Positions 4,781-42,070 of a stretch of DNA of 64,000 bases are shown here, in pieces. A program made the translations under genes and the position numbers. Source of the stretch: Vermamoeba vermiformis (Eukaryota); assembly GCA_045837725.1 (NCBI GenBank), contig JBEWZL010000306.1, positions 62,001-126,000 on the forward strand. The letters run 5' to 3'. Within the stretch, counting starts at the first letter, position 1. Every line of letters begins with the position of its first letter. The notes beneath the pieces were generated by a model that saw only the letters and a list, made by a program, of their open reading frames with translations, was not told the origin of the DNA and ran no database searches.

Positions 4781-6406
4781 TTATTGTTTGTATTTTTCGA
4801 TCAAGGCCATCACTTCCTCTTCAGATGCGTTCACTTCTTCGGACTTTGTTTGTAGCGACGACAATTGCGTCAATTCGTCGGGCATTACCTTATTAGGAAA
4901 CTCGCCTAAGCTTTCAGTAACAACTTTAGCAAACTTTGCAGGGTGAGCCGTGCCTAAGCACACTAAAGGAGTGCCTTCAAGATGAAGTTTGGAAACCACA
5001 TCCGATCCGGCTTTAACTCCGACAGCAGTATGCGGGTCCAAAACATATTGATACTTCTCATAATACTCCTTAATAGTCTTCTTAATATCTTCTTCGGACA
5101 CACGCGACGATTTGAAGGCTTGTTGTGCTCGATCCAGAACAGATCCATCGACGGTCAGTTTTCCGGTAGTCTTGAAGACATTCATCCAATCAGATATGGT
5201 GCTCGCACTTGAGTTGGATAGGTAATATAAATATCGTTCGAAATTAGAAGAAATTTGAATGTCCATTGACGGGGTTGATGTTTCTTTGACACCTTCTTGA
5301 TGGTACTCCCCACGCTTGAAAAATCGATCCAAAATGTCGTTTTCATTTGTAGCGACTATTAATTGATCGATCGGCAGGCCCATTGCACGTGCATAGTATC
5401 CTAAAAAGGAAATAAAGTTAGCCTAATCCAAAACGATAAAAATAACTTATCTTCAATTGCTCAATTTTGCAGATATAGTTTCTATATTAGACTATATAAC
5501 TATTATACTATATATTTACCTGCTAAAATGTCGCCAAAATTGCCGGTTGGAACGGAAAAATTGACTTTTTGACCAAGCGTGATCCGGTTGTCGCGTACAA
5601 GTTGATAATAGGCATGGAAATAATATACTATTTGTGCCAATATGCGAGCCCAGTTGATTGAATTGACAGCTGAGATATTGTGACGTTGTTTGAACTCTTG
5701 TCGGCCGAAAACGGATTTGACAATATTTTGAGCATCATCAAAAGTGCTATTTTTGACTGCCAGACAGTGTACATTAGGATCCAATATCGATGTCATTTGC
5801 AGTTCTTGAATAGGACTAACTTTGCCTTGCGGGTATATGATGAAAACTTGAATATTTTTTTTTCCGCGCATCCCGTGAATTGCTGCGCTGCCAGTATCTA
5901 ACCTTGTATTAGTCTCATATAATTAATCAACAAATATCTTATTATCGGTATTTACCTCCAGAAGTTGCACCTAAGATCGTAATGTGTTGATTTTGGTTGG
6001 CTCCATCTGGCTTCGTCAAAAAATATTCAAATAAATTGCCCAAAAATTGGAGAGCGATGTCTTTGAATGAATAGGTAGGTCCATGAAACAGTTCCAATAT
6101 CCAAACTGGTCCAACCGATCGGCAAGGAGCAACAAGTTGAGCTCTGAAATTATCATGATACGAAGCGGTTATAATTCGTTGAAGATCCGCGTCTGAAACT
6201 TCTTTCGGGTCAATATACAAGCGCAAGATATTATAGCAAAGCGATTTGTAATCCAAATTGCTCCACTCGCTGATCTTTGACTGAATCTGCGGGATGTTCT
6301 CTGGAATGAACAATCCGCCATCAGGAGCGAGTCCACCCATTACTACTTGCTCGAAAGACCATCCTGAGACTTGTCCTCTAGTGCTTTTATATGTGTATGT
6401 TGACAT
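4781..6406 (-). CDS. THR4: Threonine synthase (fungal-type, PLP-dependent)
   Basis: YKSTRG, GLAPDGGLF, ELFHGPTYSFKD (PLP lysine), GATSGDTG across an intron, NSINWARILAQIVYYF, VPTGNFGDIL, PSMDIQISSNFER, TAHPAKF; 3 exons. Confidence 0.95.
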
Positions 6407-6474
6407 CTTGAGAAAATAATAAATGAAAATGTTCCGCTATCAAATTTAATTCTGATCTGCCTCGTGTGAACACA
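6407..6474. promoter_or_regulatory. Putative bidirectional promoter between threonine synthase and homoserine kinase
   Basis: Only 68 bp separate the two divergent ATGs; promoter activity is inferred from geometry. Confidence 0.55.
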
Positions 6475-7958
6475 ATGGCAAATACCTCAACTAATGAATG
6501 GCACTTTAATATACCTTGTTCCAGCGCTAATGTCGGTCCAGGGTTTGATGTACTTGGAATGGCGCTTGATCTTTACATGAGGTAAGATAAAACTCGCCCC
6601 TAAATTTTTTAAACAGTCTGAAATTATTATAAATAATAATATTGTGTCCAAAAATGTCAATTCAAAGTATGTTTAAGCGAGCAGATATTTTTTGTAGATT
6701 TTTTCAAAATACTTTTCAAGATCTAGTTGCATATGCAATACTGGCGACTGGTCTTAAGATTCACCGGTATTTTAATTAATTTTTGTATCACTTTAGGGTT
6801 ACAGTACGCAAGAGCACGCAATCAGATGACACGTTGACTTTTAAAGGCCGAGGCAGCGATGTTATCCCTTCAAACAAGACCAATCTCATCTATCAAGCAT
6901 TTATGCACGTAATTAACGAGCTAAAAGTCGAACGAAAGTTCTTTATTGATATTGAAATCAACAACGACATTCCTGTTGGAAAAGGCAAGCACGTTCTTTC
7001 TAGAGCGTAGCTCAAGTTCGAAAATTTGGAAATATTAGTCCGTTTAATAAGCTTATATTTCACCTATCATTGAATGATCGTTCGGTGTTGACTTAATTTT
7101 TCTGACGAGGGACTTTTTTGTTCAGGGCTTGGAAGCTCCGGTGTAGCAGTAGCAGCAGGTGTTATGATAGCCAATAGCTGTTACGATCTCAAATTAGACA
7201 CACAACAAATACTACAACAATGTTTGAAAATCGAAAAGCATCCGGACAACTTTACGCCTACAATCGTCGGAGGCTTTACAGCGTGCATGACATCAGAACA
7301 TGACGATAAGATTGTATATAATAAGATACCCGTTAATAGCAAGGTAACTTATAGCACTTTTAAATCGTCGCGTACTGGTTTTATTTGGCTGAAATTTTTT
7401 CTCCGAAGAAATTTGGCCCAAAATGTTTGATAGAGTCTCACGTATTATTTTTAGATTAAAGCAGTCATAGTAGTGCCTAATTTCGAACTGCCGACTTCTC
7501 AAGCTCGTCAAGTACTTCCACAACACTATTCGAGAGCAGATCTCGTTTTCAATCTCCAACGAGCCGTTACACTCATTTCAGCGTTACAAGGTACCTTATT
7601 CTTCGATATATACTGTGTTAATACCGTATGCCAGGCGATGTTACGTCTGAATCAGTTCAATTTGCTATTCGTGAAGCGATGAAGGATCGCATCCACCAGC
7701 CTTACAGATCTAAACTCGTCCCTGGGCTAACTGAATGGTAACAATATACATATGTAATCTTTTAATACTAATACTGTCCTTAGTATCCAATTAACTATGC
7801 CTGGCCTTCTCGGAGTTTGTTTAAGTGGCGCTGGGCCCAGTATTTGTGCCCTCGCTGTTGACAACTTTGACAGCATCGGCAACAAGATCAAAAGCATTCT
7901 GAAAGACAAACAAATCGACGCAGAGCACTTTGTATTGAATATTATCAAGACAGAGTAA
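6475..7958 (+). CDS. THR1: Homoserine kinase (GHMP family)
   Basis: PCSSANVGPGFDVLGMAL, IPVGKGLGSSG (across GC-AG intron 6985-7125), EKHPDN, DRIHQPYRSKLVPGL, CLSGAGPS. Confidence 0.93.
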
Positions 7959-8154
7959 ACGGTAGTTTATCAGAACTCAGGGTGAATCATCGGGCCGACG
8001 AGTTAATGTTGGCACGTCAAAAGACGGAAAAAAAGGCTACAACTCACGACATTCCTTTACTTCTTCGAAAATATGCCTAACTAGTAGAAAACCTGCGGTA
8101 TGGATCCAGGTAAAAAAGATTAGACTAGAATACATCGTTTATTTTGACGTCTTA

Positions 8155-10262
8155 TTACGCGCTTTGATTAGAAGTAGTACTACCGGCAGTATTATAGCTA
8201 TTCTTACTCCTACGCTGCGTCGTAGTGTTACCAGATCCAGATGGACTTTTGTCGGGCATGAACCAGACTTGAATGAAAGTAATAAGACCTAATAATACGG
8301 ACTCTACATATATCGCTACTAGCTCAAAAATGATGCTCTTGTAAACAATATAATACCGCAGGATGAAAGCGCAGGGAGGATAAATACAAGCAATAATTGT
8401 CGAGATAATAATCGATACACGGCTCTAGATACACTAATATTAATATATATGTACTATTATGGCATTCTAACATTTTGATTTACCTTCATGAGGCTATCTA
8501 GTCGAGGTTTACTATCGGCGTTCATTTGCTCGGATCGATTAATAATCTCCAACGCTTTTACGGCTATCAATATTACCGTTCATTAATATAAGTGGTAATA
8601 TTAATATATAGTAGAACAACGTACCGACAATGATGTAGAAACAAGCGACGGTCATGCCAGTAGCTAACGAAATGGCTCCGAGTGCGACGAAAAGCGGTAG
8701 AATAGTAATGTAGATCAATAGCAAGGCATTGATAGCTGGTAGTATTATAATAATAGCAACGAGGATCCAGAATGGTATCTGCATTCTGATCAAAAAGTCA
8801 GTACGCGAACAAGTTTTATGAATTTCCAAATAAGGCAATACTTACTTCTTGGACAAGAACGCTTGTACTTCTGTGTCTGCGAACTGATTGATGACTTCGA
8901 ACCAGAAGAATGCCATCAGCACCAGTGCTGCGACTGAGAAAATAAAGTTAAGGAATAACTATGAAAAAGTTCAAATTAGCCATCCGAGGGCCGTGCTTAT
9001 ATGAAGGATACAAGACCACGTAGCCGGCCAAGTGTCAATAAACGCGTCGATAGCAGCACTATATATTCCCCAGGTCAAGAGCGGATCTATCCATCGAACG
9101 ATCATCACTGAAATGAAATCGAGGGAAACGTTAGACCAAAACTAAATACATAATAAAGGTTACATATACGTACAAATGCAAAATACCGCTTGAAAGAACA
9201 AATAAACAAAGCTGATATTCCAGATAAAGCCAGTCTCTTTCACTTTTCGGACAAACTTGTAGATCACGAGCGCGAGAAGCAAGAGATAAAATACAAAGAA
9301 TACTGCGTTCAATGCGATGAACCACCATGTGTATGCGATTTTTTTATGCCACATACTGACGCCTGTAATAATTGTCATCAAAAACAATCTCGGTACGTAG
9401 CTTGTTAAAATTATATAATTTTTAGCAGAATTTCTACGCACCAGGAGTAATTTCCAACGTCACGTACGGTGAGTGGGCGAGAAGATCTGTTAACCTTTGG
9501 TAATCCGGTTTTGACACCTTTAAAGGTAGAGTTAGTTTGACAGCTGTCATACTTACGATATAAACACTAATGCTTACCAATACAGCGGGAATCTCAAGTG
9601 GAGATCGGCTGAGCGGAATGCGAGATCTTCTACCATTAAATTCGGGTGGATTCAAATCGCTAATAAGTACTGCAGCTGCTCCAGCTATATCATAAATACG
9701 TTAGTGATGCCGGAATTAATTTATATTGTCTAATTAGAAGCATTTTCTCTGAGAGGAAAGAAATTCTGAGCGAATTTTTCCTATTTTGAAGCGCAGCCTG
9801 AATTATGAGCGCGAGCGACGTACCATTGACTGCTGCGGCATATTGATTCACAGGAGTGCAAGGTCCTATTGGTATAAAAGCAATCATGCCTTCAGCTGAG
9901 TACGGAACGCATCCAGGAGACTGGCAAAAAAAAAAATTAGTAGATCGAACTGTAGGCACTAGATCATTGATAAAATCTACTATAATCTTGTCTTTTGTGC
10001 ATAATACAATAGTAATATTTGTACCTGAAACGTAACATTGCCAATAACTTTGAAATCAGTGGGTCCACCGACAAATCCATTTGTTAGAGTGGGCGTATTG
10101 AACTCAGGATCGCTGTATAATGAATAATGAGTAAATATTACGCATGTTATTTTAACAATTCTAGACAACTTACGGTACGATTGGAAAAATGACGCGGGTC
10201 GCGGATGTGACAGCAAATAGCACAACGACAGTCGAAAACAATAGCCTATGGCGATTCTGCAT
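8155..10262 (-). CDS. Signal peptide + PA domain + ~7TM membrane protein, copy A
   Basis: Hydrophobic N-terminus; PA-like GMIAFIPIGPCT..AAVNAGAAAVLISD..LEIPAVLVS; seven hydrophobic segments ending LLGLITFIQVWF; U12 intron 8934-9011. Confidence 0.75.
8934..9011 (-). other. U12-type GT-AG intron (copy A)
   Basis: 5' GTATCCTT; branch TTCCTTAAC at 8947-8955; removal restores WPATWS|FAALV. Confidence 0.9.
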
Positions 10263-10566
10263 CTCACATATGTAATAAATAACTCGGTCTAGTTGTCATT
10301 TATTGAACTGTTGCTATTTTAGCGTAAACTGAAACTAAACAAGCCTTATTAGGCTTTATCTATTTAAATTATCGGAAATTTGCTTATAATTGACAGTCAA
10401 AATTAGTACATTAGAAGCAGCTGCTCCAGAATAGCTAAGAATGTTGAGCGCGAAACGGTCATTACCTCGTATTCTATTTGTCTTCCTTGCGGCCGTTATT
10501 AAAATAATCGTAATTAATTTACTCCATCGTGCCATTGTCAATAATTCGTGCAACGTTCTCGTAGTA

Positions 10567-12605
10567 TTACAAATGGTTACCAGATCCGGATGGAAGTTTA
10601 TCCGGCATGAACCAGACTTGAATGAAGGTAATAAGACCTAATAATACGGACTCTACATATATATCGGCTAGCGCGAAGATTGAGCTCTTGTAGACAATGT
10701 AATAACGCAAGATGAAAGCGCAGGGAGGATAAATACAAGCAATAATTGTCGAGATAATAATCGATACACGGCTCTAGATACACTAATATTAATATATATG
10801 TACTATTATGGCATTCTAACATTTTGATTTACCTTCATGAGGCTATCTAGTCGAGGTTTACTATCGGCGTTCATTTGCTCGGATCGATTAATAATCTCCA
10901 ACGCTTTTACGGCTATCAATAATACCGTTCATTAATATAAGTGGTAATATTAATATATAGTAGAACAACGTACCGACAATGATGTAGAAACAAGCGACTA
11001 TCATGCCAGTAGCTAACGAAACGGCTCCCAGCGCAACGAAAAGCGGTAGAATTGTAATGTAGATCAATAGTATGGCATTAATCGATGGTAGTACTATAAT
11101 AATACCACCGAGTATCCAGAACGGGATCTGCATTCTAGCCAAAAAGTCAGTGCACGAACAAGTTTTATGAATTTCCAAATAAGGAAATACTCACTTTTTG
11201 GACAAGAACGCTTGTACTTTGGTGTCTGCGAACTGATTGATGACTTCGAACCAGAAGAACGCCATCAGCATCAGCGCTACGACTAATAACAAAAGTAAAG
11301 GAAAAGTTAAAATATTAAACGTGGATTAAAAACGGATAAACGCAACGTATGAAATGGATACACGACCATCTAGCGGGCCACGTGTCAATAAATACGTCGA
11401 TAACAGTGCTATATATTCCCCAAGTCAAAAGCGGATCTATCCATCGAACGATCATCACTGAAAAATTAATGATCGTTAGACATGAATAATTAAGCTTATG
11501 TACGCACAAATGCAAAATGCCGCTTGCAAGAATAAATAAACAAAGCTGATGTTCCAGATAAAGCCAGTCGCTTTGACTTTTCGAACAAACTTGTAGATCA
11601 CGAGTGCGAGTAGCAGGAGATAAAATACAAAGAATATAGCATTCAATGCGATGAACCACCATGTGTACGCGATATTTTGATGCCACAAACTGACGCCTGT
11701 AATAATTGTCATCAAAACAATCTCGGTACGTAGCTTTTAAAAATTATATTATTATTTAGCAGAATTTCTACGCACCAGGAGTAATTTCCAACGTCAAGTA
11801 CGGTGAGTTGGCGAGAAGATCCTTGAGCCTAAAGTAATCCGGTTTTGACACCTTCGAGGTAGAGTTAGCGTGACAGTGTCATACTTCAAATATTAGTGTT
11901 GGGCACTTACCAAGACAACAGGAATCTCAAGCGGAGATTGGCTGAGAGGAATGCGCGATCTTCTACCATGAATTTCGGGTGCATCGAAATCGCAGAAAAG
12001 TACTGCAGCTGCTCCAGCTATATCAGAAATACGTTAGTGATAGCGGTATTTATTATTGTATATCTTTCGTATTGTCGAACAAGGCAGTTTCTTTGATTTC
12101 CGAGTTTTTCCAAATTTGGAGTGCGATCTGAATTTACTGCGCGAAATCGACGTACCATCGATTGCCGCGGCATACTGATTCTCACGAGTACATTGTCCTA
12201 ATGGTATGAGTGGTAGCATGCCTTCAGCTGTGTATGGATCGCATCCAGGAGGCTGGCAAATAAAATTTAGATCGAACTGTCTATCGGTCTTAATCTGTAT
12301 ATTATTGCTAAAAGCTACTATGATTGTATTTAGATATCATACTATAATAGTAAGATGTGTACCTGAAACGTAACATTGCCAATAACTTTGAAATCGGTGG
12401 GTCCACCAACAAATCCGTTTGTTAGAGCGGGCGTATTGAACTCAGGATTGCTGTACAATGAATACATTAGCAAAAAATGCATATTTGATATTTAAAAATT
12501 CTCTTTAACTTACGGTACGATTGGAAAAATGATGCGGCTTGCGGATGTTAGAGCAATTATTAGCACTACGACAGCAAAATACAATAGACCATGGTGTTTG
12601 TACAT
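10567..12605 (-). CDS. PA domain + ~7TM protein, copy B (shortened C-tail)
   Basis: Same exon structure as copy A with long near-identical stretches; ends QVWFMPDKLPSGSGNHL*. Confidence 0.72.
11283..11361 (-). other. U12-type intron with degenerate signals (copy B)
   Basis: 5' GTATCCAT; branch TTCCTTTAC; same position and phase as in paralogs. Confidence 0.75.
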
Positions 12606-12931
12606 CTCTGTGTCACACGTGACATTTGTTATAAATAACTCGGTCTAGTGTCAAGCGTCGTTTGCAAGTTGAAAGGTGCTCTTTTTTGGCTAAAACTTAA
12701 ACTGGGCAAGCCGGATTAGGTTCAAGTTTTGGCTATTTATATTATCAAAAATTTGCTCATAATTGGCACCGAAAATTTGTGTTCGCAATACATAATGTAA
12801 AATTTACTGCTGTAGATTTTTAAAAATCTGTTATAATAATTGAGCGCGAAGATCATTACCTCGTATTCTCTACGCATTTCCTTGCCAACCATTATTTAAC
12901 TAATTTACTCTATTTGAGACCATAGTATAAT

Positions 12932-12983
12932 TCATTTCATTGAATAGTGCAACGGTCTCGTGGTGCATTATTCAATGAAATGA
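12932..12983. repeat. 20-bp inverted repeat with 12-nt spacer
   Basis: TCATTTCATTGAATAGTGCA ... TGCATTATTCAATGAAATGA, one mismatch (G-U pair on the + strand). Confidence 0.85.
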
Positions 12984-13480
12984 TAAAAACAAAATAATTT
13001 GTTTGCTTATGAATGAAAGCACAATGCTACCGGCTCTCACGCGACAGTAAATTATGTTGTTTGCTGTTACGCTTCAAATAATGGTGAAGGCAAATCGATC
13101 GAGTCTCGAACAAATCTGGGTAACTATCAATTAAGCAATTATTTTTCTATTTACAATTTAAATTATATAATTTATGTTCAAAATTTTAACGTGAAGCGTT
13201 AGGAAAACGAAGCGCACAGATTACAAGGGGATGGCGAAAATACCTTACCTTCTTCAATGCCTGTTGCCTGTTTGATATCATCACACTCGTGCCCTCAAGG
13301 AGAAACGGACATTTACAATTGAGCCGAGCGCTTCTCGAATGAAAATAATCAATGTCCGGCCAAACGGAGAAATATAATTGACGCGAGCGAAGGATCCAAG
13401 GCCAAATACAAAAAGAAAAACAGATTAGTAGTCAATCATCAACAACTTAATAGCAACAACAAATACTACCACTGCAAATC

Positions 13481-14407
13481 ATGTCTTCTGCTACTGAATC
13501 AAGAGTTTGGCTCATTACCGGCTGCTCATCTGGATTTGGCTTTGAACTCGTTCGTGCAGCTCTTGCTCGTGGCGAAAAAGTCATTGCTACTGCTCGGTCA
13601 ATCGACAAGATCGAGGAATTGAAGGCCGCCGGCGCTGCTACTCTGAGTTTGGATGTGACAAGTCCTCTTTCTGAACTCAACGCTGTAGCGGAGAGAGCGA
13701 TTGCCATTTATGGAAAAGTTGATGTATTAATCAACAATGCTGCATTCATCTTACAAGGTGCCATGGAAGAGAACACGTAAGTAGCGAGGAAAAATTCGGT
13801 TCAGATCTAACTTTGCCTTTCTAGACCTGAAGAGACCTTCCAACAATTCAACACTAACGTATTTGGATTACTCAACGTCACTCGCGCATTTTTACCTCAC
13901 ATGCGCGCTCGCAAATCCGGAGTTATCGTCAACATTGGAAGTATCGGCGGATGGGGTGGCGCCGCAGGAGCAGGACTCTATTGCTCGACTAAATTTGCGT
14001 TAGAAGGCATTACTGAAGCATTGCGCAGTGAAGTAGCACATCTGGGCATCAAAGTCATAGTCATTGAACCCGGCTACTTTCGCACTCAATTGCTCAAGCC
14101 AGGCAACACGCAAGCCTCTAGTACTATCCAGGACTATGAAGCTAGTGTCGGCCCCGTAAGAAAAATGCTCGAGGCTTATAATGGAAAACAACCTGGAGAC
14201 CCCAAAAAGGCCGCCGAACGCATCGTGGACATTGTTACGCAATCTGGCACCGCGCAAGGCCGAGAAATTCCAGTACGCGTTGCATTAGGCACGGATGCTT
14301 ATGCCTATATTAAAGGCACCATCGAACAGTCGTTGAAGGACTTGGAAGCATGGAAAGATGTTACCATTACAACGGATCACGATGACGTTAAACAAGCAGC
14401 TTATTAA
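13481..14407 (+). CDS. Classical short-chain dehydrogenase/reductase
   Basis: TGCSSGFG cofactor motif, NNA, catalytic YCSTK, IEPGYFRT; one intron near 13777-13824. Confidence 0.92.
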
Positions 14408-14448
14408 TTATTAATTATTCTTGTATTAAATAAATCGCTAATTTTACA

Positions 14449-16616
14449 TTAGACTTCAACTGTTGAATTGGCAGTCGTAGTCGTATTTTCTTTGTCTCTC
14501 ACCGAGTTCAGACTTTGAGATCCCTTACTCGTGGAAGACATTCCAGGAGATTTCTCGGGCATGAACCAAACTTGAATGAATGTAATAAGGCCTAGCAACG
14601 TTGATTCTTCATATAGAACTGCAAGACCGAAGAACAGATTGCCACCGACGATGTAGTAGCGCAAGATGAAATTGCAAGGCGGATAAATACAAGCGATGAT
14701 TGTTGAGATAATGATCGATATCCGGCTCTAATAATATCATTACTATATATATTTGGTTTAGATGAAATTAATTACGTACTCTCATTAACCCTCTGACGCG
14801 AGATTTCTTGTCGACGTTCAATCGTTCGGATCTCTTAATAACTTGTAACGCTTTAACAGCTGAACAAAAGTTATTAGCACAAATATTATTGCTGGCAATA
14901 TACACCTCTATTCATACCAACGATAATGTAGAAACAGGCTACGATCATTCCTGCAGCAAATTCAATGCCCAACAGGGCGACGAACAAAGTGCGAATGGTG
15001 AGAAAGCTCAATAGGATGGCATTAAGAGCGGGCAGCAAGATAATAATTCCGACGAGGATCCAGAAAGGGATCTGCATTCTGATCAAAAAAGTCAGTACAC
15101 GAACAATTAAGAATTTCCAAATAAGGCAATACTCACTTTTTGGACAAGAACGCTTGTACTTTTGTGTCTGCGAACTGATTGATGACTTCGAACCAGAAGA
15201 ACGCCATCAGCACCAGCGCTGCGACTGAAAAATACGAGGTTAAGGAATAAATATGAAAAAGCAAGTTGAATCAGTGGGCAATGTATGAATCGTTGTCAGA
15301 AGGATACATGACCACGTAGCAGGCCACGTGTCGATAAATGCATCTGCCATTGAGCTAATGATACCCCAAGTCAAGAGCGGATCGATCCAACGAACGATCA
15401 TCACTTTGGATCAGTTAGTAAGGCTCGTTATCATGATATGAAGGTACTTACATATACAAAATACTGCTTGCAATCCTAAGTAGACGAAGCTAATGTTCAA
15501 AACGAATCCAGTCGCTCGAACTTTTCGGACGAACTTGTAGATCACAAGTGCCAATAACGCCAAGTAGAATAGGCCATATAGGATATTCAACGTGATGAAC
15601 CAACCTGTGAAGCCAATATTTTTGTGCCATTCGCTTACTCCTACGCATATCATGCGAGATTAATATCTTCTATAAATTTAAAACGCCAAGTATACGAATA
15701 AAATTTAATATCGTTCGATAAAAGATCAATTACCTGGAGTAATATTAATTGTCACATACGGCTCAGTTTTGTTAACAATCATGTCTCTGAGCTTGAAATA
15801 ATCTGGACCCGACATCTGGACAAGAAAAGTCGTCAGATTAGCAGCTGCGGTTCAATACTGTCGAGTAGTACTATGACTTACAATGACTGCAGGGATATCA
15901 AGTGGCGTATTGCTCAACGGAATGCGGGATCTGCGTCCAACAACTCCGGGCACATCGTAATCACTGAAAATAACGCCGGCAGCTCCCGCTACACATAAAA
16001 ATAGGTCAATCGTTAATATTACGCGCGTTCATATTAAAATTGTTACTGTATCAATAAATCGAAATTAAGGCCCGGAGTTACAGAGCCGATTCTAAGTTTC
16101 CCTTTTAAAGAAGAATTAAAATTGCCAAAAATACAAACCTTCTTTCGCCAATTCAAATTGATGTTCACGACCGCAATGTCCGATAGGAATAACTACTATC
16201 ATGCCCGCAGCTGAAAAAGATTCGCAGCCAGGGATCTGGATCAGACCATAAAATTAGTTTAAAATTTTAAAGATGACAACCTTTCGAAATCAATCGATTC
16301 GACATTGTAATGCAAAAATTTGATATGAAAGTCGATCTATATGCCATTAAACGCACCTGTAACGATACATTGGCAGTGACAGAAAAGTCCGTAACACCAC
16401 CGACAAATCCGTTCGTCATGACAGGCGTATTCATTTCCGGCCTTATTGTTGTACAATTAGTAACCATTTGATATCATAATCAAATCAAGTTTGTCTCGAT
16501 AATTCTTCGACTTACATTCCAGGCGGAAAAACATACTGGCTGGCAGATGCGATATTGAACAGAACCAACGTTACAAAAAATAATAGAACAGAATGACCTA
16601 CACGCATTTCGTTCAT
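14449..16616 (-). CDS. PA domain + ~7TM protein, copy C
   Basis: Same exon series and motifs (TNGFVGG, RWIDPLLTWG, MQIPFW, ITFIQVWF); U12 intron 15225-15307. Confidence 0.72.
15225..15307 (-). other. U12-type GT-AG intron (copy C)
   Basis: 5' GTATCCTT; branch TTCCTTAAC at 15239-15247. Confidence 0.9.
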
Positions 16617-17319
16617 TTGTGGTCGTTACTTGGAGCTTGTATTAAATTAAATGGCACCGCCGGACGTAATTTTTTCATGATTTCTTTGCTGCATAGAAAT
16701 TTGCTAATTGGGGCAGTAATTTCAGATTGTGAGCGCTTGAACCACACCGATAAACCCAACGGCAATGCTATATTAAGCTGCGTGTTACCATAATGATCAT
16801 TATGACTATGTCGTAGCTTAACAATCTGGTCTTACTTGGTATTTGAGCTCTTTTAACTATTCATCGCCTTCTGTAAAATTCAAGTTTGAGAACAAACTCC
16901 GCGCCAACACAAGTTTAAACTTGATCCTTGATATACGTACGAAAATTGTTGTTCATACTAATACGTGCGAGGGATGATATATTCTAGCACACTTCGGCAA
17001 AATAAAATAATTAATTCAAAAATTTAAAATTGAATGACCACTGCCAAAATCGTAGCACAAATGTTTGAAAAGTATAGTACGATATTTTGTATATTAGAAA
17101 AAAATTGACGGAAGGATCAAACTCGTTTCGAAATATTGCAAATCAATTACCTGATTCTTTTTATACTAATTACTTGTTTGTCTAAAATCCAGCATTTTTA
17201 ATGCTTGAAGACGCGCAAAATTTACATCGTGTGGTTTGCTCTACGGAATTAAAAAGATATGAAGCGAAATACTTTACTAGGCGCCAAATTAACTATATTA
17301 CATACTATTAGACTACATC

Positions 17320-19464
17320 CTAATTAGAGCTGGTTACGACCTCATGCACCGAATTAGTCGTTATAGTGTCCTTGTGGCGGATCGGCGAAGCCTTCGCTGA
17401 TACACTAGTGCTCTTATCAGGCATGAACCAGACTTGAATGAAGGTAATAATGCCGAGAAACACTGACTCTTCATATAGAACTGCAAGACCAAAGTACAGG
17501 CTATCATAGAGAATGTTGTAGCGTAACGCAAAATTGCAGGGCGGATAGACGCAGGCAATTATTGTTGAAATGATGATCGATACGCGGCTCTAATTAGAGC
17601 AATATTAATGTGAGTGCTATAATTTAAGGTTACATACTCTCATTAAGCCTCTGATGCGAGATTTCTTGTCTACGTTGAGTCGTTCGGATCTCTTAAGTAC
17701 TTGCAACATTTTGACAGCTAAACAACATAATTAGGTTATTATGACATTTGATCAACATTTCTATGCATACCGACGATAATGTAGAAGCAGGCCACAATCA
17801 TTCCGGTCGCGAAAGAAATACCCAGGAGCGCAACAAACAGAACCAGAATTGAAAATGCGTTCAATAGAATCGAATTGATAGCAGGCAGTAGGATAATTAT
17901 AGAGACAAGAATCCAGAAAGGAATTTGCATTCTATAACACAAAATTAATCTCCAGATCCAGATCGATTTCCTTTTTAGGTTAAACTACTAAAAATTTAAA
18001 GTAACGGCAATACTTACTTTTTGGACAAGAACGCTTGTACTTTTGTGTCTGCAAACTGATTGATGACTTCGAACCAGAAGAACGCCATCAGTATCAGTGC
18101 TGCGACTGAGAATCATAAAGTTAAGGAATAAGTATGAAAAAGTGAAGTTAAGGAATAAATATGAAACCCGTTCTGATTAGAATCGAAAAACTGAAGAGTT
18201 GTCATAAGGATACATGACCACGTAGCAGGCCACGTGTCAATAAACGCATCAATCACTTCGCTGTACATTCCCCACGTCAAAAGCGGATCGATCCAACGAA
18301 CGATCATCACTTTGAATCAGTTAGTTATTACAATCACGTAAAACTTATAATACGTACATGCACAAAAGATGCCCTGGAAGATAAGATAGACGAAGCTAAT
18401 GTTCAAAACGAATCCAGTCGCTCGAACTTTTCGGACGAACTTGAAGATCACGAGTGCCAACAACGCCACGTAGAATAGGCCAAATATGATGTTCAATGTG
18501 ATGAACCAGCCTGTTATTGCAACGTTCTTGTGCCATTCGCTTACTCCTACGCATGTCATTCGAGATTAATATCTTCTATAAAATTTAGTAATCTCGCAAC
18601 TATTAAAAACTTAATTTGCCAAGTCTATAATTAGGACCAAATCGTTACCTGGAGTAAGCTCCACTGTTACGTATGGAGCGTTGTTCATTATTTCAAGCAC
18701 CATGTGGTAATCTGGTCCTGAGATCTGACACAAAAGTTGTAGATATCATGACATGTAGCGTTGTATCTCTATACCAAGACTTACAAAAACCACAGGGACC
18801 TCGAGTGGCGTACTGCTAATTGGGGTACGTGATCGTCGGCCATTAGTCTCAGGCGTGTCGACAAAATCGCAAAAAATAACTCCGGCCACCCCTGCTAATA
18901 TAACTTAGTTAATACTCAATATGATAGAGCTAGTTCATTTCTTTGTATATAATATGACCCTTGCCTAGAGCGAGATCGAAATTTTGCCTTAGAAAGAGCA
19001 GACCGAATTCTTAATTTGCCTTTTAAGGTTTTTAAAGCGAAATTATTACTAACCGTCTAGTGCCAATTGGTATTGGTATTCGCGCGTGCAAGGTCCTATC
19101 GGCATAATAGCAATCATGCCTTCAGCTGAGAATGGAGCACACATCTGCACGATAAAAAATTAGCTTGACACGTGCAGCACTTAATTAAATCGATCATTTG
19201 CATAAGTTGATATACGATTGAATATATAGTATTGCTAGTTGCGTACCTGAGCTGTAATGTTTCCAATGACAGAAAAATCCGTCAGACTGCCAATAAAGCC
19301 GTTTGTATTAGCAGGAGTATTTATGTCGTTCCTGTAATCTTTTGATTAGCACTTAATAGTATAATATGACGTTGCTAGGTAAGTACTTACGGCATCGGAG
19401 GAAAAAGTATTTGGCTGGCAGATGCAGCACCGATCAGCACTACGAGCAATATAAGGCGCTCCAT
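17320..19464 (-). CDS. PA domain + ~7TM protein, copy D
   Basis: Starts MERLILLVVLIGAASASQ; same exon series; U12 intron 18106-18213. Confidence 0.72.
18106..18213 (-). other. U12-type GT-AG intron with duplicated branch site (copy D)
   Basis: 5' GTATCCTT; TTCCTTAAC at both 18120-18128 and 18147-18155. Confidence 0.9.
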
Positions 19465-19673
19465 GTGCAAAATCTGCAACCCTTAACCCTCATTTGTGGT
19501 CGTTTGTTCGTTCGTTATTTAGAATGACATGCTAATAAACAAAATTTGGTCCGCTGCAACATTTAAGTTTGTGATTTGACTGAAACAGCGCTAATCATCG
19601 CGATGACTCACAACAGCATACTGCCCTAACAACATATTAATCTCCGTAGTTACCTCTTATAAAGGTCACTAAC

Positions 19674-21415
19674 CTACGCCTCTTCTCGTGATGTAATTGC
19701 CTTCGGCGGATCTGCATGTTTTTCGCCAGCTTTTTTCTTCGAAGGTGTTGCAACACTGCCCGAAGAACAGCCAGTATTCTTATCGGGCAAGAACCAAACT
19801 TGAATGAAGGTTATAATCCCTAATAATACTGACTCTATGTATAATGCCGCGAGTGCATAAACGACACCTCTGTACGCGGTGTAGTAACACAAGACAAAAG
19901 CAATCGGAGGATAAATGCAAGCTATGATTGTTGATATTATGATCGATATCCGACTCTAAATATAGAATATTAGATATGGCCATTGATAGTGTAAATTACG
20001 TACTCTCATCAGGCCCTGAACGCGAGATCTTATCGGCGTTCAATGTTTTGGATCTCTTTATGATTTCCAACGCTTTAACAACTTCAAATGAAAATTAATA
20101 CTGTTGTCTTATCAATTGGCAGTACTTCCTACTTACCGACTGTGATGTAAAAACAAGCTATTAGCATTCCTGTGCCTAACCACACCGCTAACAGCACAAC
20201 GAATAGAGCAGCAATACGGATGTAATTGACAAGAATTGCGTTGATGGCGGGCAATAATACGATGATAGCAGTAAAGATCCAGAACGGGATCTGCATTCTG
20301 ATCGAAAAGTCAGTACGCGAACACAAGTTTTATGAATTTCCAAATAAGGCAATACTTACTTTTTGGACAAGAACGCTTGTACTTTTGTGTCTGCGAACTG
20401 ATTGATGACTTCGAACCAGAAGAACGCCATCAGCACCAGCGCTGCGACTGAGAAACGCAAGGTTAAGGAAAAATACCAGGATTGAATTAGAACGTATAAA
20501 TTCGCTCGGTATGAAAAGGATACATGACCACGTAGCAGGCCACAAGTCCATTAAGACTTCAGCAACTGACGTATATAGGCCCCAAGTCAAGACCGGATCC
20601 ATCCACCACACGATCATCACTAATAATCAATTAATCGCGATTAGTTGTGATCGACCATATTTAATCTCTCTTACGTATGCAAAATGCAGCTTGAAAGTAC
20701 AGATAAACAAAGCTAATATTCAGCAGTACGCCGGTCGCTCTAGCTTTCCGAACAAATTTGTAGATCACGAGCGCGAACAGTGCGATATAAAATAGACCGA
20801 ACATAATATTGAATGTTATGAACCAGCCTGTTATTGCAATGTTCGTATGCCACACGCTAACGCCTTTTCGAAGATAATAATTAGAAATTTCGACTCTTTT
20901 CGTTTGCTATTTTAAGCCTCGTACCTGGTCTAATCTCAATCAATACATTATTATTGCTGATTTCAATGAGCATCTTAAGATCAGGAGCCGAGATCTATCA
21001 AATTAAAGATTTGAAATTGATATTCTCGTCTTGTGGCAAAAATGACACCTGATATACTTACCATCACTGCGGGTATCTCTAGTGGAGTTTTGCTTATTGG
21101 CATGCGCGATCGTCTTCCATTGGTGGCGTAGCTATCAAAATCACAGAATATTACTCCGACGGCTCCCGCTATATTAAGAAGTCAGTATATTTTGCAGCAC
21201 TTTCTATCTGTGTTATTATGGACATAGTAAGTTGTATATGCTATAATAGCTAATTTCTTTGTCTCAGCAAGCTACGGTCCGGATGCGCTTGGTACGTTAA
21301 AAACTTAAAACGACATACATTCTAAAGCCAAGGAATATTGTCGTTCGCTACTACAAGGTCCTACTGTTACTAAAGCTATCATGCCTTTCGCTGTATAAGC
21401 TGCGCATCCAAACCC
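19674..21415 (-). CDS. PA domain + ~7TM protein, copy E, lacking the first two paralogous exons (truncated gene or pseudogene)
   Basis: Homologous exons from GFGCAAYTAKGMIAL onward; the signal-peptide and GFVGG exons were not found before the LRR gene stop at 21552; U12 intron 20448-20523. Confidence 0.6.
20448..20523 (-). other. U12-type GT-AG intron (copy E)
   Basis: 5' GTATCCTTT; branch TTCCTTAAC at 20462-20470. Confidence 0.9.
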
Positions 21416-21551
21416 CTACGTTAAGTTCGTTTCATGAGCATCTTTGGTACGTTACTTGGTTCAGTAACAGCAAATGATGGCCTAAGATGGTCATAAATAA
21501 AAACAAGTCGTTCAACATTTAATTCAATACTGGTGTTGATGTCTGTCAAGG

Positions 21552-23359
21552 TTAAAAACTCAAAAGAGAAACAGCGAATGCCAACAACGGCAAGACAGGC
21601 AGCAAAATCGAACTATCAGAAGCCTTCTTGCAGCCAGACTCGTCCTTGGTAATTGTGACCGTGACTGCTTCAGCTTCATTGTTCTGAGTGGTTTTCAGCA
21701 CCACGCAAGACTGCACTGGATCGAGAATGATTGTCAGAATCGATGCACGTATGATCATACGAGACGCTACTTACGATTACTGTTGACAGTAATAGAACCA
21801 AAGTTGAGGTTGTCAGTGCCGCAGTAGGAGTTGAAAGTGAAGATCGTGCGCTCAATTGAACTCGAAGAACTCAATTCTTTGACTTCATCTTCGGTCAATG
21901 TAAACGACAACGAAGGGGTTCCTGTAGTAATGACTGTTAATACTTTTGAACTTCCCTTATGGCGTTATTCTTACCCTTGACTGTCGCACAGCCGTACACG
22001 ATAAGATCGCCCTCGGTGAGAGTAAGGGCTCCCGAAATAGTAAGGTTTCCAACGATGACAAGATCTCCAATTTCTGCGCCTGATGCAGGCTCGTAGGAGC
22101 CATAGATGGCCCATACAGGCTCTCTGTTAACATTGACTTGACAAACGGCGTTGCTATTAGGCGCAGGTTGAGGGCACGACTTCACACCTGCCAATAAGAA
22201 GTTGATACGCGTACGTTAAAATAATCAAAAGCCAACTTACAGTCGATTTTTGTAGTGTTGCACTTGGGATTGGTTGGAATACAGCACAAGTTGGTGCCAG
22301 AAACATCGCACGTAATAACTGTTGGAAGACTCACGTTGTAGCAGCCAGCGAGAGGATTGTTGGAAATGTTGAACCTGCCAAGGTTCGGGAGGTCTGACAA
22401 TCCAGGGTAGATCAAGCCCGTCAACAAGTTGTTGCCCGCATCAAACACTTCCAAAGTAGTGCACAATGCCAAGTCAGCTGGAATCATGCCGCTCAATTGA
22501 TTTGAAGAGAGCCGGAGGTCAGTCAGTTTCGGCATGTGACCAAGTTGCCAAGGTATAGTGCCAGTGAGCTGATTGCTATCTAAATACAGAGATTTCAGCG
22601 ACGATAACTGCTGAAGCTCGCCAGGTATGGTGCCCGTCAGTTGATTGTTAGATGCGTCAAAATTAATGAGTTGATTAAGCTGCTTCAATTCGGGAGGGAT
22701 GGTGCCAGTAAGTCTATTTTTGTTGATGAGTAGATTTTGGAGCCGTTGCATTCCGCCAATGTATGCAGGAATAGTACCAGTAACGCGAGTATTGTACAGG
22801 GCGAAACCAGTGAGGTTTACGAATGGTCGCAGATCCGGAAAGTCGCCAGTCAGGTCTGAGTCAAGGATTTGGTATTCGCTTAACGGGGAGCGAGCACTTT
22901 CGAGAAAGGTCGGAAGTTGCAGATTCGTCGTCCACCACAGATACAAAGATTGAAGATTTGGGAGAGAACCAATTTCGATTGGTAAAGGCCTCGATAAGGT
23001 CACATTATTGATCGTAATCGTCTGTAAGTAAGGCCAGTCTTTGATCCAATCCCCGATCTCAACCGCAGTTTGCTCTCTAACGTAACTACAATTTACTGGT
23101 TAATATTTTGCTTTATGGATTGCGAAAGAAGATCTTACAGCTCTGTTATGTGCATAGCGCCGTCCACCTCACGGCAAGAAACATAAGAAGGACTGCCGAT
23201 AGCGCATGGGTCTCCGGGAGTAATTGACCAAGTTGGAGGAACCAACGACGCGTTAAATAATTTATACGCATCTATCTCCGTCTTCGGAAGCTCCTGTGCT
23301 GAGCTGCAGACGATGAGAACAAAAATCTGCAGAATCATAAAACAAATAAACCGCCGCAT
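21552..23359 (-). CDS. Cell-surface leucine-rich repeat protein, probably GPI-anchored or C-terminally anchored
   Basis: Signal peptide, Cys N-cap, 24-aa plant-type LRRs (LxxNxLTGxIPxxL), Cys-rich C-cap, terminal hydrophobic stretch ILLPVLPLLAFAVSLLSF with no cytosolic tail. Confidence 0.85.
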
Positions 23360-34644: not shown

Positions 34645-37600
34645 ATGGCCACACCTGAAGCTAAGCCAACGGTTCCTACTGATTCTGGTGTTGGGGTAAG
34701 TATAGCATCTAGTTTGGCGGATAGCGATAAATATCAAAAAACAATTAATAATCGTATTCGCTATAATACCATTATAACAATAATATTTTTTATGTGGACG
34801 TATTAATTACTTGGCAGATTATTACTTTGGTAGTAACTCTGCATCGAATCAGAAATTTATTATTATTTTCAACTCAATACAATAACGTTTATTTCGCTTA
34901 TTTTATGGATAAATGTGGCTAATACAACGATAGCCGTTATTAATATTATTTTTATTTATTTTAGGCGCCCACTCCCATCCAATCCGAGGAGCAGATTCTT
35001 GATAGAATCAAAAAATGGCAACAATTAAACAGCAAACGATATGCCGAGAAAAGAAAGTTCGGCTATGTTGAACCTCAGAAAGAAGACATGCCTCCAGAGC
35101 ATCTGCGAAAAATTATCAAGGATCACGGTGACATGTCCAGCAAGAAATTCAGACGTGATAAGCGTGTATATTTGGGAGCTTTGAAATATATGCCTCACGC
35201 TATTATGAAACTCATGGAAAACATGCCAATGTAAGTATCATATCCGCGCCAATCTGATGCGTTAACCTCAAATTGTAAAATTATTTGCAGGTCATCTAAT
35301 ATTATTTTTTTCTTAGGCCTTGGGAAAATGTGCGTCACGTTAAGGTCCTTTACCACATTTCCGGCGCGATCACCTTTGTCAACGAAATCCCACGCGTCGT
35401 CGAGCCCGTGTACACCGCTCAATGGGGTACCATGTGGGTGATGATGCGAAGAGAAAAGAGAGATCGTAAGCACTTTAAGCGAATGCGCTTCCCTCCTTTT
35501 GACGACGAAGAACCTCCACTTGACTTTGGTGACAACATTTTGGACGTCGAGCCTCTCGATCCGATCCGCATTGATTTGGACGAAGAAGAAGACGCTCCCG
35601 TCCTCGAGTGGTTCTATGACCCCAAGCCACTCGTAGGCACTCCCTACGTCAATGGTTCCAGCTACAAGAAATGGCGATTGAACACTCCTATCCTCGCCAA
35701 CTTGTACCGCTTGGCCAACCAATTGATGAGCGATTTGGTCGACAAGAACTATTTCTACATGTTCGAAGAGAAGTCTTTCTTCACCGCAAAGGCACTCAAC
35801 AGCGCTATTCCTGGCGGTCCTAAATTCGAGCCTTTGTTCAGAGATTTGGAAGACAACGATGAAGATTGGAACGAGTTCAACGACATTAACAAGATCATCA
35901 TTCGTCACCAAATCAGAACCGAGTACAAGGTCGCGTTCCCGTACCTCTACAACGACAGACCCAGAAAGGTCTACTTGGCCTATTACCACCACCCACCCGT
36001 GTGCTACATTAAGGCCGACGATCCTGACTTGCCCGCGTTCTTCTTCGACCCCCTCATCAACCCCATTGTGTCAGTTAAGGGCAAGAAGAAAGCCAAGAAG
36101 GAAGAATCCGAAGAAGAGGAAGACGACTTTGAATTGCCCGAAGGAGTCAAGCCCTTGTTGAACCAAGACGACTTCGAAATGCCCAAGGGATTCAAGCCTT
36201 TGCTTCGCGAGAGTGTTCCCGACCTCTACACCGAAAACACTGCCGACGGTATTGCTCTTTACTGGGCTCCTAAGCCTTTCAACCAACGCTCGGGACGTAC
36301 TCGTCGTGTTCTCGACGTTCCTCTCGTCAAGACTTGGTACCAAGAGCGCTGCCCTGGAGACTACCCCGTCAAGGTCCGTGTCAGCTACCAAAAGCTGCTC
36401 AAGTGCTACGTCCTTAACAGACTGCACTTCCGACCTCCCAAGCCTAAGACCAAGAAGTCACTCTTCAAGGCTTTCAAGGCTACCAAGTTCTTCCAATCTA
36501 CAGAAATCGATTGGGTTGAAGCTGGTTTGCAAGTTTGCCGTCAAGGCTACAACATGTTGAACTTGCTTATTCACCGCAAGAACTTGAATTACTTGCATTT
36601 GGACTACAACTTCAACTTGAAGCCCATCAAGACTCTTACCACCAAAGAACGTAAGAAGTCTCGCTTCGGTAACGCTTTCCACTTGTTGCGAGAAATCTTG
36701 AAGTTGACTAAGCTCGTCCTCGACGCTCACGTGCAATATCGATTGGGCAACGTTGAAGCCTTCCAACTTGCGGACGCTATTCACTACACCTTCACTCACG
36801 TTGGTCACTTGACGGGCATGTACCGTTACAAGTACCGTTTGATGCGTCAAATCAGAATGTGCAAGGATCTCAAGCACTTGATCTACTACAGATTCAACAC
36901 TGGTCCAGTCGGCAAAGGTCCTGGTGTTGGTTTCTGGGCTCCTTCTTGGAGAGTCTGGCTCTTCTTCATGCGCGGCATTGTTCCGCTCTTGGAGAGATGG
37001 TTGGGCAACTTGCTTGCTCGTCAATTCGAAGGTCGTAAGTCTAAGGGCATTGCTAAGACTGTCACCAAGCAACGTGTCGAAAGTCACTACGATATCGAAC
37101 TTCGTGCCGCCGTCCTTCGTGATATCCTGGATATGATGCCCGAAGGCATTCGTCAAAACAAGGCCAAGACCATTCTGCAACACTTGAGCGAGGCTTGGAG
37201 ATGCTTCAAGGCCAACATTCCATGGAAAGTTCCTGGTTTGCCCGCTCCTGTCGAGAACATGATCTTGCGTTACGTCAAGGCCAAGGCTGACTGGTGGACG
37301 TCTGCTGCTCACTACAACAGAGAACGTGTCCGCCGTGGTGCCACCGTCGACAAGACCGTCGTCAAGAAGAACTTGGGTCGTCTGACTCGTTTGTGGTTGA
37401 AGGCTGAACAAGAGCGTCAATTCAACTACTTGAAGGACGGTCCTTACATCTCGCCCGAAGAAGCCGTTGCTATCTACACCACTACCGTGCATTGGTTGGA
37501 AAGCAGAAGATTCTCCCCGATTCCGTTCCCGCCACTCAGCTACAAGCACGACACCAAGCTCCTGATCTTGGCTCTCGAAAGATTGAAGGAAGCTTACGCC

Positions 37601-40600: not shown

Positions 40601-42070
40601 TTGCCCGTCGAAGAACAGCCCAAGCAAATCATCGTCACCCGTAAGGGTATGTTGGATCCGCTCGAAGTCCACTTGCTCTCCTTCCCCAACATCGTCATCA
40701 AGGGAAGTGACTTGCAATTGCCGTTCCAAGCCTGCTTGAAGATCGAGAAGCTCGGTGACTTGGTACTTCGCGCCACTGAGCCTCAGATGGTCTTGTTCAA
40801 CTTGTACGACGACTGGTTGCAATCCATCTCGTCTTACACTGCCTTCTCTCGTCTCATTTTGATCTTGAGAGCTCTTCACGTCAACACTGACCGCGCGAAG
40901 GAAGTTTTGAGACCGCACAAGGACGTCATCACTGAACCTCACCACATCTGGCCCACTTTGTCCAACGACGAATGGATCAAGGTCGAAGTCGCCTTGAAGA
41001 ACTTGATCTTGGCTGACTATGGCAAGAAGAACAACGTTAACGTGACTTCATTGACTCAATCTGAAATCCGTGACATCATCTTGGGTGCTGAGATTGCTCC
41101 TCCTTCTGAGCAACGTAACGAGATTGCTGAAATTGAGAAGCAAGCCCGCGAAGCCTCTCAATTGACTGCCGTTACTACCAAGACGGTTAACAAGCACGGA
41201 GATGAGATCGTTGTTACTACCACCAGTCCTCACGAGCAGAAGATCTTCTCATCCAAGACCGACTGGAGAGTTCGCGCCATTTCTTCGACTACTCTTCACT
41301 TGCGTACTGGCCACATCTACGTCAACTCCGATGAGGTCAACGAAGAAGGCTACACCTACGTCATGCCTAAGAACATTCTCAAGAAGTTCATCACCATTTC
41401 TGATCTTCGTACTCAAGTTGCCGGTTACATGTTCGGTGTTTCTCCTCCAGGCAACAATCAAGTGAAAGAAATCCGTTGCATTGTCATGCCACCTCAATGG
41501 GGTACTCACTCCTTCGTTCAGTTGCCCAACAGCATCCCAGATCACGAGTTGTTGCGCGACCTCGAACCATTGGGCTGGTTGCACACTCAACCCTCCGAGT
41601 TGCCTCAAATGGCTCCCTCTGATGTCATCACCCACGCCAAGTTACTCTCGGAGAATACCACCTGGGATCCCAAATCTATCTGCGTCACGGTCAGCTTGCC
41701 TGGTGCTTCTGCCTCGTTGACTGCTTACCGCTTGACTCCTGGTGGCTTCGAATGGGGTCGACAGAACGTCAACAGCGAGCGCGAACAGAACTACCAAGGC
41801 TACAAACCTTCATTCTACGATCGCGCACCCTTGCTCTTGTCTGATCGTTTCTTGGGCTTCTTCATGGTTCCTGATGTCGGCAGCTGGAACTTCAACTTCA
41901 TGAGCGTCAACCACAGCGTTAACATGAAGTATAACTTGACCTTGGGCATTCCTAAAGATTTCTACAATGAGAGTCACCGTCCTGCTCATTTCTTGAACTT
42001 CTCAGAGATGGAGAGCACTGCTACCACCGAGGGAGGCGATAATGTTGATCAAGAAGATTTGTTCTCCTAA
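34645..42070 (+). CDS. PRP8: Pre-mRNA splicing factor Prp8
   Basis: Characteristic Prp8 motifs throughout ([43 protein letters not shown]); introns 34696-34964 and 35231-35316. Confidence 0.99.

Follow-up and report, generated by a model that had tools for sequence, protein, structure and literature searches.

Can a membrane protein family that is expanding in tandem carry an intron of the minor, U12-dependent type in each of its copies? The question is raised by a stretch of 64,000 nucleotides (nt) from Vermamoeba vermiformis (assembly GCA_045837725.1, contig JBEWZL010000306.1, positions 62,001 to 126,000 of the forward strand), the whole of which is called the window below. Using tblastn with one gene model (c3) as query we located five tandem paralogs, c1 to c5, on the minus strand at approximately 8.2-21.4 kb. 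Each of them is predicted to code for a protein with a signal peptide, an ectodomain of PA-like type and seven membrane-spanning helices. We conclude that intron 7 of these five PA-seven-transmembrane genes is quite probably a genuine U12-type GT-AG intron that was inherited by duplication. We further infer that the organism possesses a working minor spliceosome and that the five copies are spliced at these junctions.

Five tandem genes and their seventh intron

The window is eukaryotic, with about 40% G+C and many introns of 48-160 nt. An 11-exon model of c3 served as reference; the five loci were aligned with MAFFT, and exon ends were projected onto the other copies and refined by coordinate (Table 1). 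The encoded proteins are 57-71% identical to each other, c1 and c2 84%. For c5, exons 1 and 2 were not found upstream of position 21415 on the minus strand by this alignment-based modelling. Compared with the other copies, c5 lacks 2 nt within an A-run of exon 10 (20004-20081, minus strand), so that its last exon falls out of frame, and no shifted splice site brings the frame back. This copy is either a pseudogene or affected by an assembly error.

In all five copies intron 7 interrupts the Phe codon of W-S|F behind its first base (phase 1) and has GT-AG termini. In the predicted structure of the homologue P0001 (see below) the site would lie in the third membrane helix, with S260/F261 inside helix 246-276. 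The perfect donor GTATCCTT is found in four copies (minus strand 9004-9011, 15300-15307, 18206-18213 and 20516-20523), while GTATCC at 11356-11361 marks the fifth homologous donor, that of c2. In all five copies the branch A is placed 13-15 nt before the last intron base, i.e. 13-14 nt when measured from the motif end. The optimum for a U12 branch site is roughly 10-15 nt from the 3' splice site. Both motifs agree with those described in excerpts of the preprint 10.1101/2020.10.12.336362, namely a [G/A]TATCCTT donor and, no more than ~45 nt from the 3' splice site, TTCCTT[G/A]AC; the minor small nuclear RNAs (snRNAs) pair with both. The position in phase 1 fits the phase bias of minor introns, which follows the order 1 > 2 > 0 in an excerpt of PMC10639083.

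These motifs are concentrated at the five genes. The branch motif TTCCTTAAC occurs five times in the window against 0.58 expected, a number reached in none of 100 shuffles. All occurrences are on the minus strand (8947, 15239, 18120, 18147 and 20462), each of them 50-90 nt downstream of a GTATCCTT donor. GTATCCTT itself also occurs five times (1.75 expected; 2 of 100 shuffles reach five). Bare GTATCC was not enriched in the window, with 16 occurrences against 18.6 expected. Among the 48 introns modelled in c1-c5, only intron 7 has 0-1 mismatch to both GTATCCTT and TTCCTTAAC, and it does so in 5/5 copies. The remaining 43 introns show at least 2 mismatches to GTATCCTT and at least 3 to TTCCTTAAC, and none of these 43 U2 donors begins like GTATCC. 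Reading through intron 7 leads to an in-frame stop in c1-c4, whose open reading frames (ORFs; 426-454 amino acids (aa)) are intact only if the intron is removed at these sites. The 76-nt intron of c5 contains no in-frame stop; its retention would shift the frame.

Two copies deviate from the simple pattern. In c2 each motif carries one mismatch (GTATCCAT and TTCCTTTAC) and the ORF is still intact; this intron may be starting to lose its signals or to convert to the U2 type. In c4 a block of ~22 nt holding the branch site is present twice (18120-18160, minus strand), with the two motifs 27 nt apart (18155-18147 and 18128-18120), and only the downstream block lies at a working distance from the AG. 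Tandem Repeats Finder did not report the doubled branch block of c4, which was seen directly in the sequence. As separate observations, c2 has Thr replaced by Arg just upstream of intron 7 (A-R-W-S), and the U12 signals of c5 are perfect despite the frame shift in exon 10.

To look for further cases we scanned the 64-kb window for [AG]TATCC followed by a branch-like motif. The scan gave no other U12 candidate intron; its three extra matches fell in exons or at an acceptor. We rejected a GTATCCTT at 29351 (+), which belongs to a coding exon of a gene for a GT92-type glycosyltransferase, a GTATCC at 7783 (+), which straddles the acceptor of a GHMP-kinase gene, and two ATATCC, one at 35240 (+) within the PRP8 ORF and one at 15586 (-) within exon 6 of c3.

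The original prediction, made from the letters of the stretch, had read the locus well. It had described five paralogs with a 76-108 nt phase-1 intron starting with GTATCC at WS|F in the third membrane helix, four of them with both motifs perfect and the branch motif about 13-14 nt from the 3' end, had recognised these signals as the U12 consensus, and had noticed no other U12 intron in the window. The gene models, the helix prediction, the spacing and the motif scan are all in agreement with this description. Its view that duplication had multiplied the intron is borne out by the identical site and phase in five tandem copies, and its remark that the intron interiors are divergent by the pairwise comparison given below.

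Table 1. The five paralogs, their seventh introns and the homogenised block around exon 8 (window coordinates)
Feature	Position	Strand	Description
c1	8155..10262	-	11 exons, 446 aa, ORF intact; projected and refined model plus tblastn
c2	10567..12605	-	11 exons, 426 aa, ORF intact; C-terminal tail shorter
c3	14449..16616	-	11 exons, 454 aa, ORF intact; reference model
c4	17320..19464	-	11 exons, 439 aa, ORF intact
c5	19780..21415	-	exons 3-11 modelled only
c1 intron 7	8934..9011	-	78 nt; donor GTATCCTT 9011-9004; branch site TTCCTTAAC 8955-8947; branch A 14 nt before last intron base
c2 intron 7	11283..11361	-	79 nt; U12-like, weakened; donor GTATCCAT; branch site TTCCTTTAC; branch A 13 nt from end
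c3 intron 7	15225..15307	-	83 nt; donor and branch site perfect; branch A 15 nt from end
c4 intron 7	18106..18213	-	108 nt; donor perfect; branch site doubled; branch A of downstream copy 15 nt from end
c5 intron 7	20448..20523	-	76 nt; donor and branch site perfect; branch A 15 nt from end
Exon 8 + intron 8 block	c1 8786-8933; c2 11135-11282; c3 15079-15224; c5 20298-20447	-	homogenised among copies
c4 counterpart of block	18018-18105	-	mainly exon 8 and start of intron 8

Conservation of the signals within and beyond the array

Of the 17 motif columns in the alignment of the five introns, 15 are invariant and the other two are identical in 4/5 copies. Among the other ungapped columns of intron 7, 17/54 reach identity in four of five copies, which gives a naive P of ~3e-9. 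The pairwise identity of the introns is 0.56-0.70, equal to the background between unrelated U2 introns, and the spacer between branch site and AG is distinct in each copy. Exon 7, which adjoins the donor, shows ordinary divergence. This conservation pattern is the strongest argument for the U12 type.

Splicing of intron 7 would then proceed as follows. U11 and subsequently U6atac would recognise the donor GTATCCTT, and U12 would recognise TTCCTTAAC, the branch site at 13-15 nt from the AG; such pairing of motifs and snRNAs is well established in general. The other nine or ten introns of each gene would be ordinary U2-type introns. Intron 7 was probably already part of the ancestral gene of the family, since its donor is shared by homologues with as little as 46% identity to P0001, and was copied at each tandem duplication. 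In c2 both signals would have begun to decay.

The homologues were obtained in two steps. A search with exon 11 returned a single match, P0001 (469 aa), which shares 61-70% identity with c1-c5. When P0001 was used as query in an exhaustive profile-free search, 53 proteins were obtained at E <=0.001, including 16 at E <=1e-10. Ten homologue clusters were looked up, and all of their members came from JGI environmental data, from Logan or, in one case, from an MMETSP transcript.

At the intron site these homologues are of two kinds. P0001 is uninterrupted and joined precisely at the predicted junction (W-S|F-A-A-L), as is P0002 (W-S|I-A-A-L). In four shorter ORFs, which stem from other contigs, the match breaks off at precisely this site and the sequence continues with C-I-L, reading ...ATWS-CILF in P0015 and P0022 and ...VSWA-CIL in P0003 and P0008. 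The window introns, when read through in frame, give W-S-C-I-L (W-S-C-I-H in c2). This agreement identifies the four ORFs as unspliced genomic forms that keep a donor T|GT-ATC-CTN. Exon 7 of P0015 is identical to that of P0001, so the two appear to show a single gene in its genomic and in its joined state. P0003 is 46% identical to P0001, and a donor shared at such a distance is older than the tandem array. From the 3' side, P0048 reads into exon 8, with a peptide that is compatible with a U12 or a U2 branch site. Metagenome scans with P0001 and P0056 as queries confirmed no genomic DNA of relatives, and a word search with exon 7 plus read-through gave no candidate.

Additional information on the host comes from the PRP8 gene of the window; PRP8 is a core protein of both spliceosomes. 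In a FastTree phylogeny of 28 PRP8 sequences, the window protein is sister to a sequence from a EukProt transcriptome (82% identity), followed by a Logan sequence. This group joins Acanthamoeba and another sequence with a Shimodaira-Hasegawa-like (SH-like) value of 99. A Haematococcus-labelled PRP8 (P0076) was rejected as close relative; its high score came from an internally duplicated model, at ~70% identity. Over its full length the window PRP8 does not exceed 82% identity to the 27 other tree sequences, and over residues 1-700 it reaches at most 79% with any match except its own entry (100%). Judged by these identities the host seems to belong to a sparsely sampled protist lineage. According to excerpts of PMC2846911, U12 splicing has been reported in Acanthamoeba and Physarum and has been reported lost in Dictyostelium and Entamoeba. 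The grouping of the window PRP8 with Acanthamoeba, together with U12 splicing in that lineage, was counted in favour of a U12 type of intron 7.

Objections and alternative explanations

Several observations weigh against a U12-type intron 7 or lessen the weight of the evidence for it. The five introns are not independent observations, and gene conversion is active in the array and reaches exon 8, which abuts intron 7. The end of the branch motif, TTAAC, resembles the U2-type branch sites of the host (CTAAC or CTGAC), such that the branch site alone is less diagnostic here than in animals. In the homologues not all donor bases are determined by the peptide read-through, and P0001 was taken to be complementary DNA, and not an intronless gene, on account of where it comes from and of its prokaryote-style product name. 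The placement of the host near Amoebozoa is tentative, being drawn from a single gene and one FastTree run. An Rfam search of the 64-kb window gave 0 matches at gathering threshold or at E up to 5, a result that is uninformative on the rest of the genome. Pfam scans of the window (8 large ORFs; 134 ORFs of >=75 aa) revealed no U11/U12-specific protein. Finally, three RNA runs with the same species label yielded 9, 6 and 12 reads on 8000-21600, mostly from other paralogs, and no read across any of the five intron-7 junctions.

These RNA reads were mostly partial and 95-99% alike to the window. The single read joint listed (8785 to 11195) as well as the loose ends come from other paralogs. Reads spliced at junctions of the intron 6 and intron 8 type differ from all five copies, which shows that at least one more expressed paralog is located elsewhere in the genome.

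One proposal, put forward with the original prediction, concerns what the intron does: slow minor splicing of intron 7 could serve as a shared throttle on the expression of the whole family. There is a general precedent, as minor introns have been proposed to be rate-limiting (Patel et al. 2002, as cited in an excerpt of PMC8329584), and retention of intron 7 would truncate the c1-c4 proteins and put c5 out of frame. Against this, an excerpt of the preprint 10.1101/2020.10.12.336362 states that U12 introns are retained no more than U2 introns in Physarum, which is the only amoebozoan to have been examined in depth. Neutral processes may moreover explain much of minor intron evolution, as put forward in an excerpt of PMC10639083, and the RNA reads are too few, and too often from other paralogs, to speak for a throttle. 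We regard it as unlikely.

Alternatively, the major (U2) spliceosome could remove intron 7, with the U12-like motifs being a relic or simply tolerated, in an organism that may be without a minor spliceosome. The GT-AG termini would permit this, TTAAC fits the U2 branch consensus of the neighbouring introns, no minor snRNA was found in the 64 kb searched, and in c2 a mismatch in each motif is tolerated with the ORF intact. Unused motifs would, however, not hold 17 columns fixed while the interior of the intron drifts to background, and they would not persist in homologues as distant as P0003. Furthermore, GTATCC differs from all 43 U2 donors of the same genes. Removal by the major spliceosome is for these reasons quite unlikely, and the U12 type remains the preferred reading.

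The remaining two alternatives are based on the region downstream of intron 7. Exon 8 (88 nt, starting at the U12 acceptor) is 92-100% identical in all copies, compared to means of 0.59-0.80 for the other exons, and intron 8 is 84-95% identical among c1, c2, c3 and c5. Where two copies share an amino acid in exon 8, they also share its codon in 243 of 265 pairwise cases (0.92), compared to 0.44-0.64 in the other exons; outside exon 8 the paralogs are saturated at synonymous sites. The exon 8/intron 8 block is confined to the five copies. A second homogenised region is shared by c1 (8425-8624) and c2 (10774-10973) on the minus strand, where intron 9, exon 10 and intron 10 are 98-100% identical, compared to 61-94% for other introns. 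Such a pattern suggests a recent gene conversion between c1 and c2, or a partial duplication. For the exon 8 block we likewise prefer gene conversion as the explanation, with a constrained peptide that keeps up the identity needed to seed it.

The block of ~150 nt formed by exon 8 and intron 8 could instead be a cis-acting exon-definition module, which the minor spliceosome needs to find a very short intron. A perfect U1-type donor and exon sequence, possibly paired across intron 8, would constitute the module, a receptor-like family would be switched together via minor splicing, and conversion alone would not account for the block. A 211-nt region folds with a z of -3.6; exon 8 alone reaches z of -1.0 to -2.7, with a different fold in c1. 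The candidate exon-8 hairpin was not established, as changes in its stem are one-sided and G-U-compatible only, without a compensatory pair. A role of the block at the RNA level is thus weakly supported, and we consider the module very unlikely.

Least probable of all is that the shared motifs of intron 7 result from concerted evolution, by gene conversion or recent duplication, and not from selection, such that their conservation would say little on function: the homogenised stretches around exon 8 and between c1 and c2 show that such processes occur in the array, but the distinct branch-AG spacer of each copy, the interior at background identity and the ordinary divergence of exon 7 contradict it for intron 7, as does the donor kept in homologues beyond the array.

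Relation to known systems and the surrounding genes

Intron 7 resembles the canonical U12-type GT-AG introns of animals, plants and some fungi and protists in its donor, in a branch site near the 3' end without extended pyrimidine tract, in its phase 1 and in being a single minor intron among U2 introns. It differs from them in being very short. Also, it does not reside in an old housekeeping gene; the present family of membrane proteins is lineage-restricted and known from protist transcriptomes and environmental data only.

That the original prediction presented a U12 intron kept in every copy of a family as unusual was an overstatement, since conservation of the U12 type between paralogs is already documented. 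A U12-type intron common to ancient paralogs has been described (PMC9120149), an excerpt of PMC8329584 cites MAPK8/9 and TMEM87a/b as gene pairs with minor introns, and paralog-shared minor introns are enriched 34-45-fold in Physarum polycephalum according to an excerpt of the preprint 10.1101/2020.10.12.336362. Like intron 7, the introns of these pairs are found at the same homologous position and were inherited by duplication. In contrast to the pairs, we deal here with a tandem array of five copies that shows signs of gene conversion, with one copy decaying and one probably broken.

Physarum would possibly belong to the same supergroup as the host if the PRP8 placement holds, and the GT-AG subtype is the main one in both. 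For perfect donors, excerpts of the same preprint give 3,021 GTATCCTT against 627 ATATCCTT in Physarum. They also describe ~20,900 introns with TTTGA 9-12 nt from the 3' splice site, together with a co-changed U12 snRNA. Unlike Physarum, the window keeps the classic TTCCTTAAC, and its 5 U12-like introns among 48 modelled ones all belong to one family.

The locus thus offers a clean example of classic U12 signals in an apparently sparsely sampled protist lineage, in a lineage-restricted and tandemly expanding family rather than in an ancient housekeeping gene. It bears on how minor introns persist and spread, as duplication raises their number without new insertion, and in c2 decay or conversion may just be setting in. 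Knowledge of minor splicing itself is unchanged: this is a real but ordinary case of inheritance by duplication.

Regarding the protein family, we would call it a putative PA-ectodomain protein with a seven-helix membrane part similar to that of G-protein-coupled receptors (GPCRs). With 21.7 bits, the PA-domain match (PF02225) of P0001 is weak and stays under the gathering cut-off (23.9). Six of 16 scanned homologues exceed this cut-off (P0016 28.9, P0019 36.0, P0028 27.2, P0036 26.2, P0042 24.2 and P0003 29.0 bits), and a PA match at E <=0.1 is found in 14/25 alignment members. The Pfam scan gave no PA match for single exons of c3, and the membrane part is covered by no Pfam family. The AlphaFold model of P0001 (alignment of 25 sequences; predicted local distance difference test score (pLDDT) 71.7, predicted template-modelling (TM) score (pTM) 0.71) contains a small PA-like domain at the N-terminus as well as seven long helices between residues 179 and 424. 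Best among the Foldseek matches were neurotensin receptor 1 (E 1.8e-3, target TM-score 0.47) and ZNRF3 ectodomains; these are weak, with E of 1.8e-3 or worse and target TM-scores of ~0.4-0.65, and no match reached E 0.001. PA-domain ectodomains of the ZNRF3 type and class A GPCR folds provide context for the host protein, all matches being weak. A relationship with TMEM87/GOST, which would have implied an ancient minor intron, was rejected as no such chain is among the Foldseek matches listed.

The Pfam families detected in the window are threonine synthase, GHMP kinase, SDR, LRR, ankyrin, GT92, F-box, PRP8, Rft1, eIF5, P4-ATPase, hydrolase, FYVE and EAF. The PRP8 gene (34965-42067, plus strand) consists of a short first ORF and a single ORF of 2256 codons, apparently with one short intron. 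Its neighbours have about ten introns each, and the G+C content of the PRP8 region is ~50%, compared to ~40% around it. The ORF at 44438-45151 (+) contains a Peptidase_S74 (chaperone of endosialidase) domain (E 5e-17), which is best known from phage tail spikes and MYRF-type proteins. A threonine synthase gene (4784-6436, minus strand) is arranged head to head with the GHMP-type kinase gene (7092-7960, plus strand). The kinase is possibly a homoserine kinase; if true, two consecutive steps of threonine synthesis would be encoded by neighbouring genes in a eukaryote.

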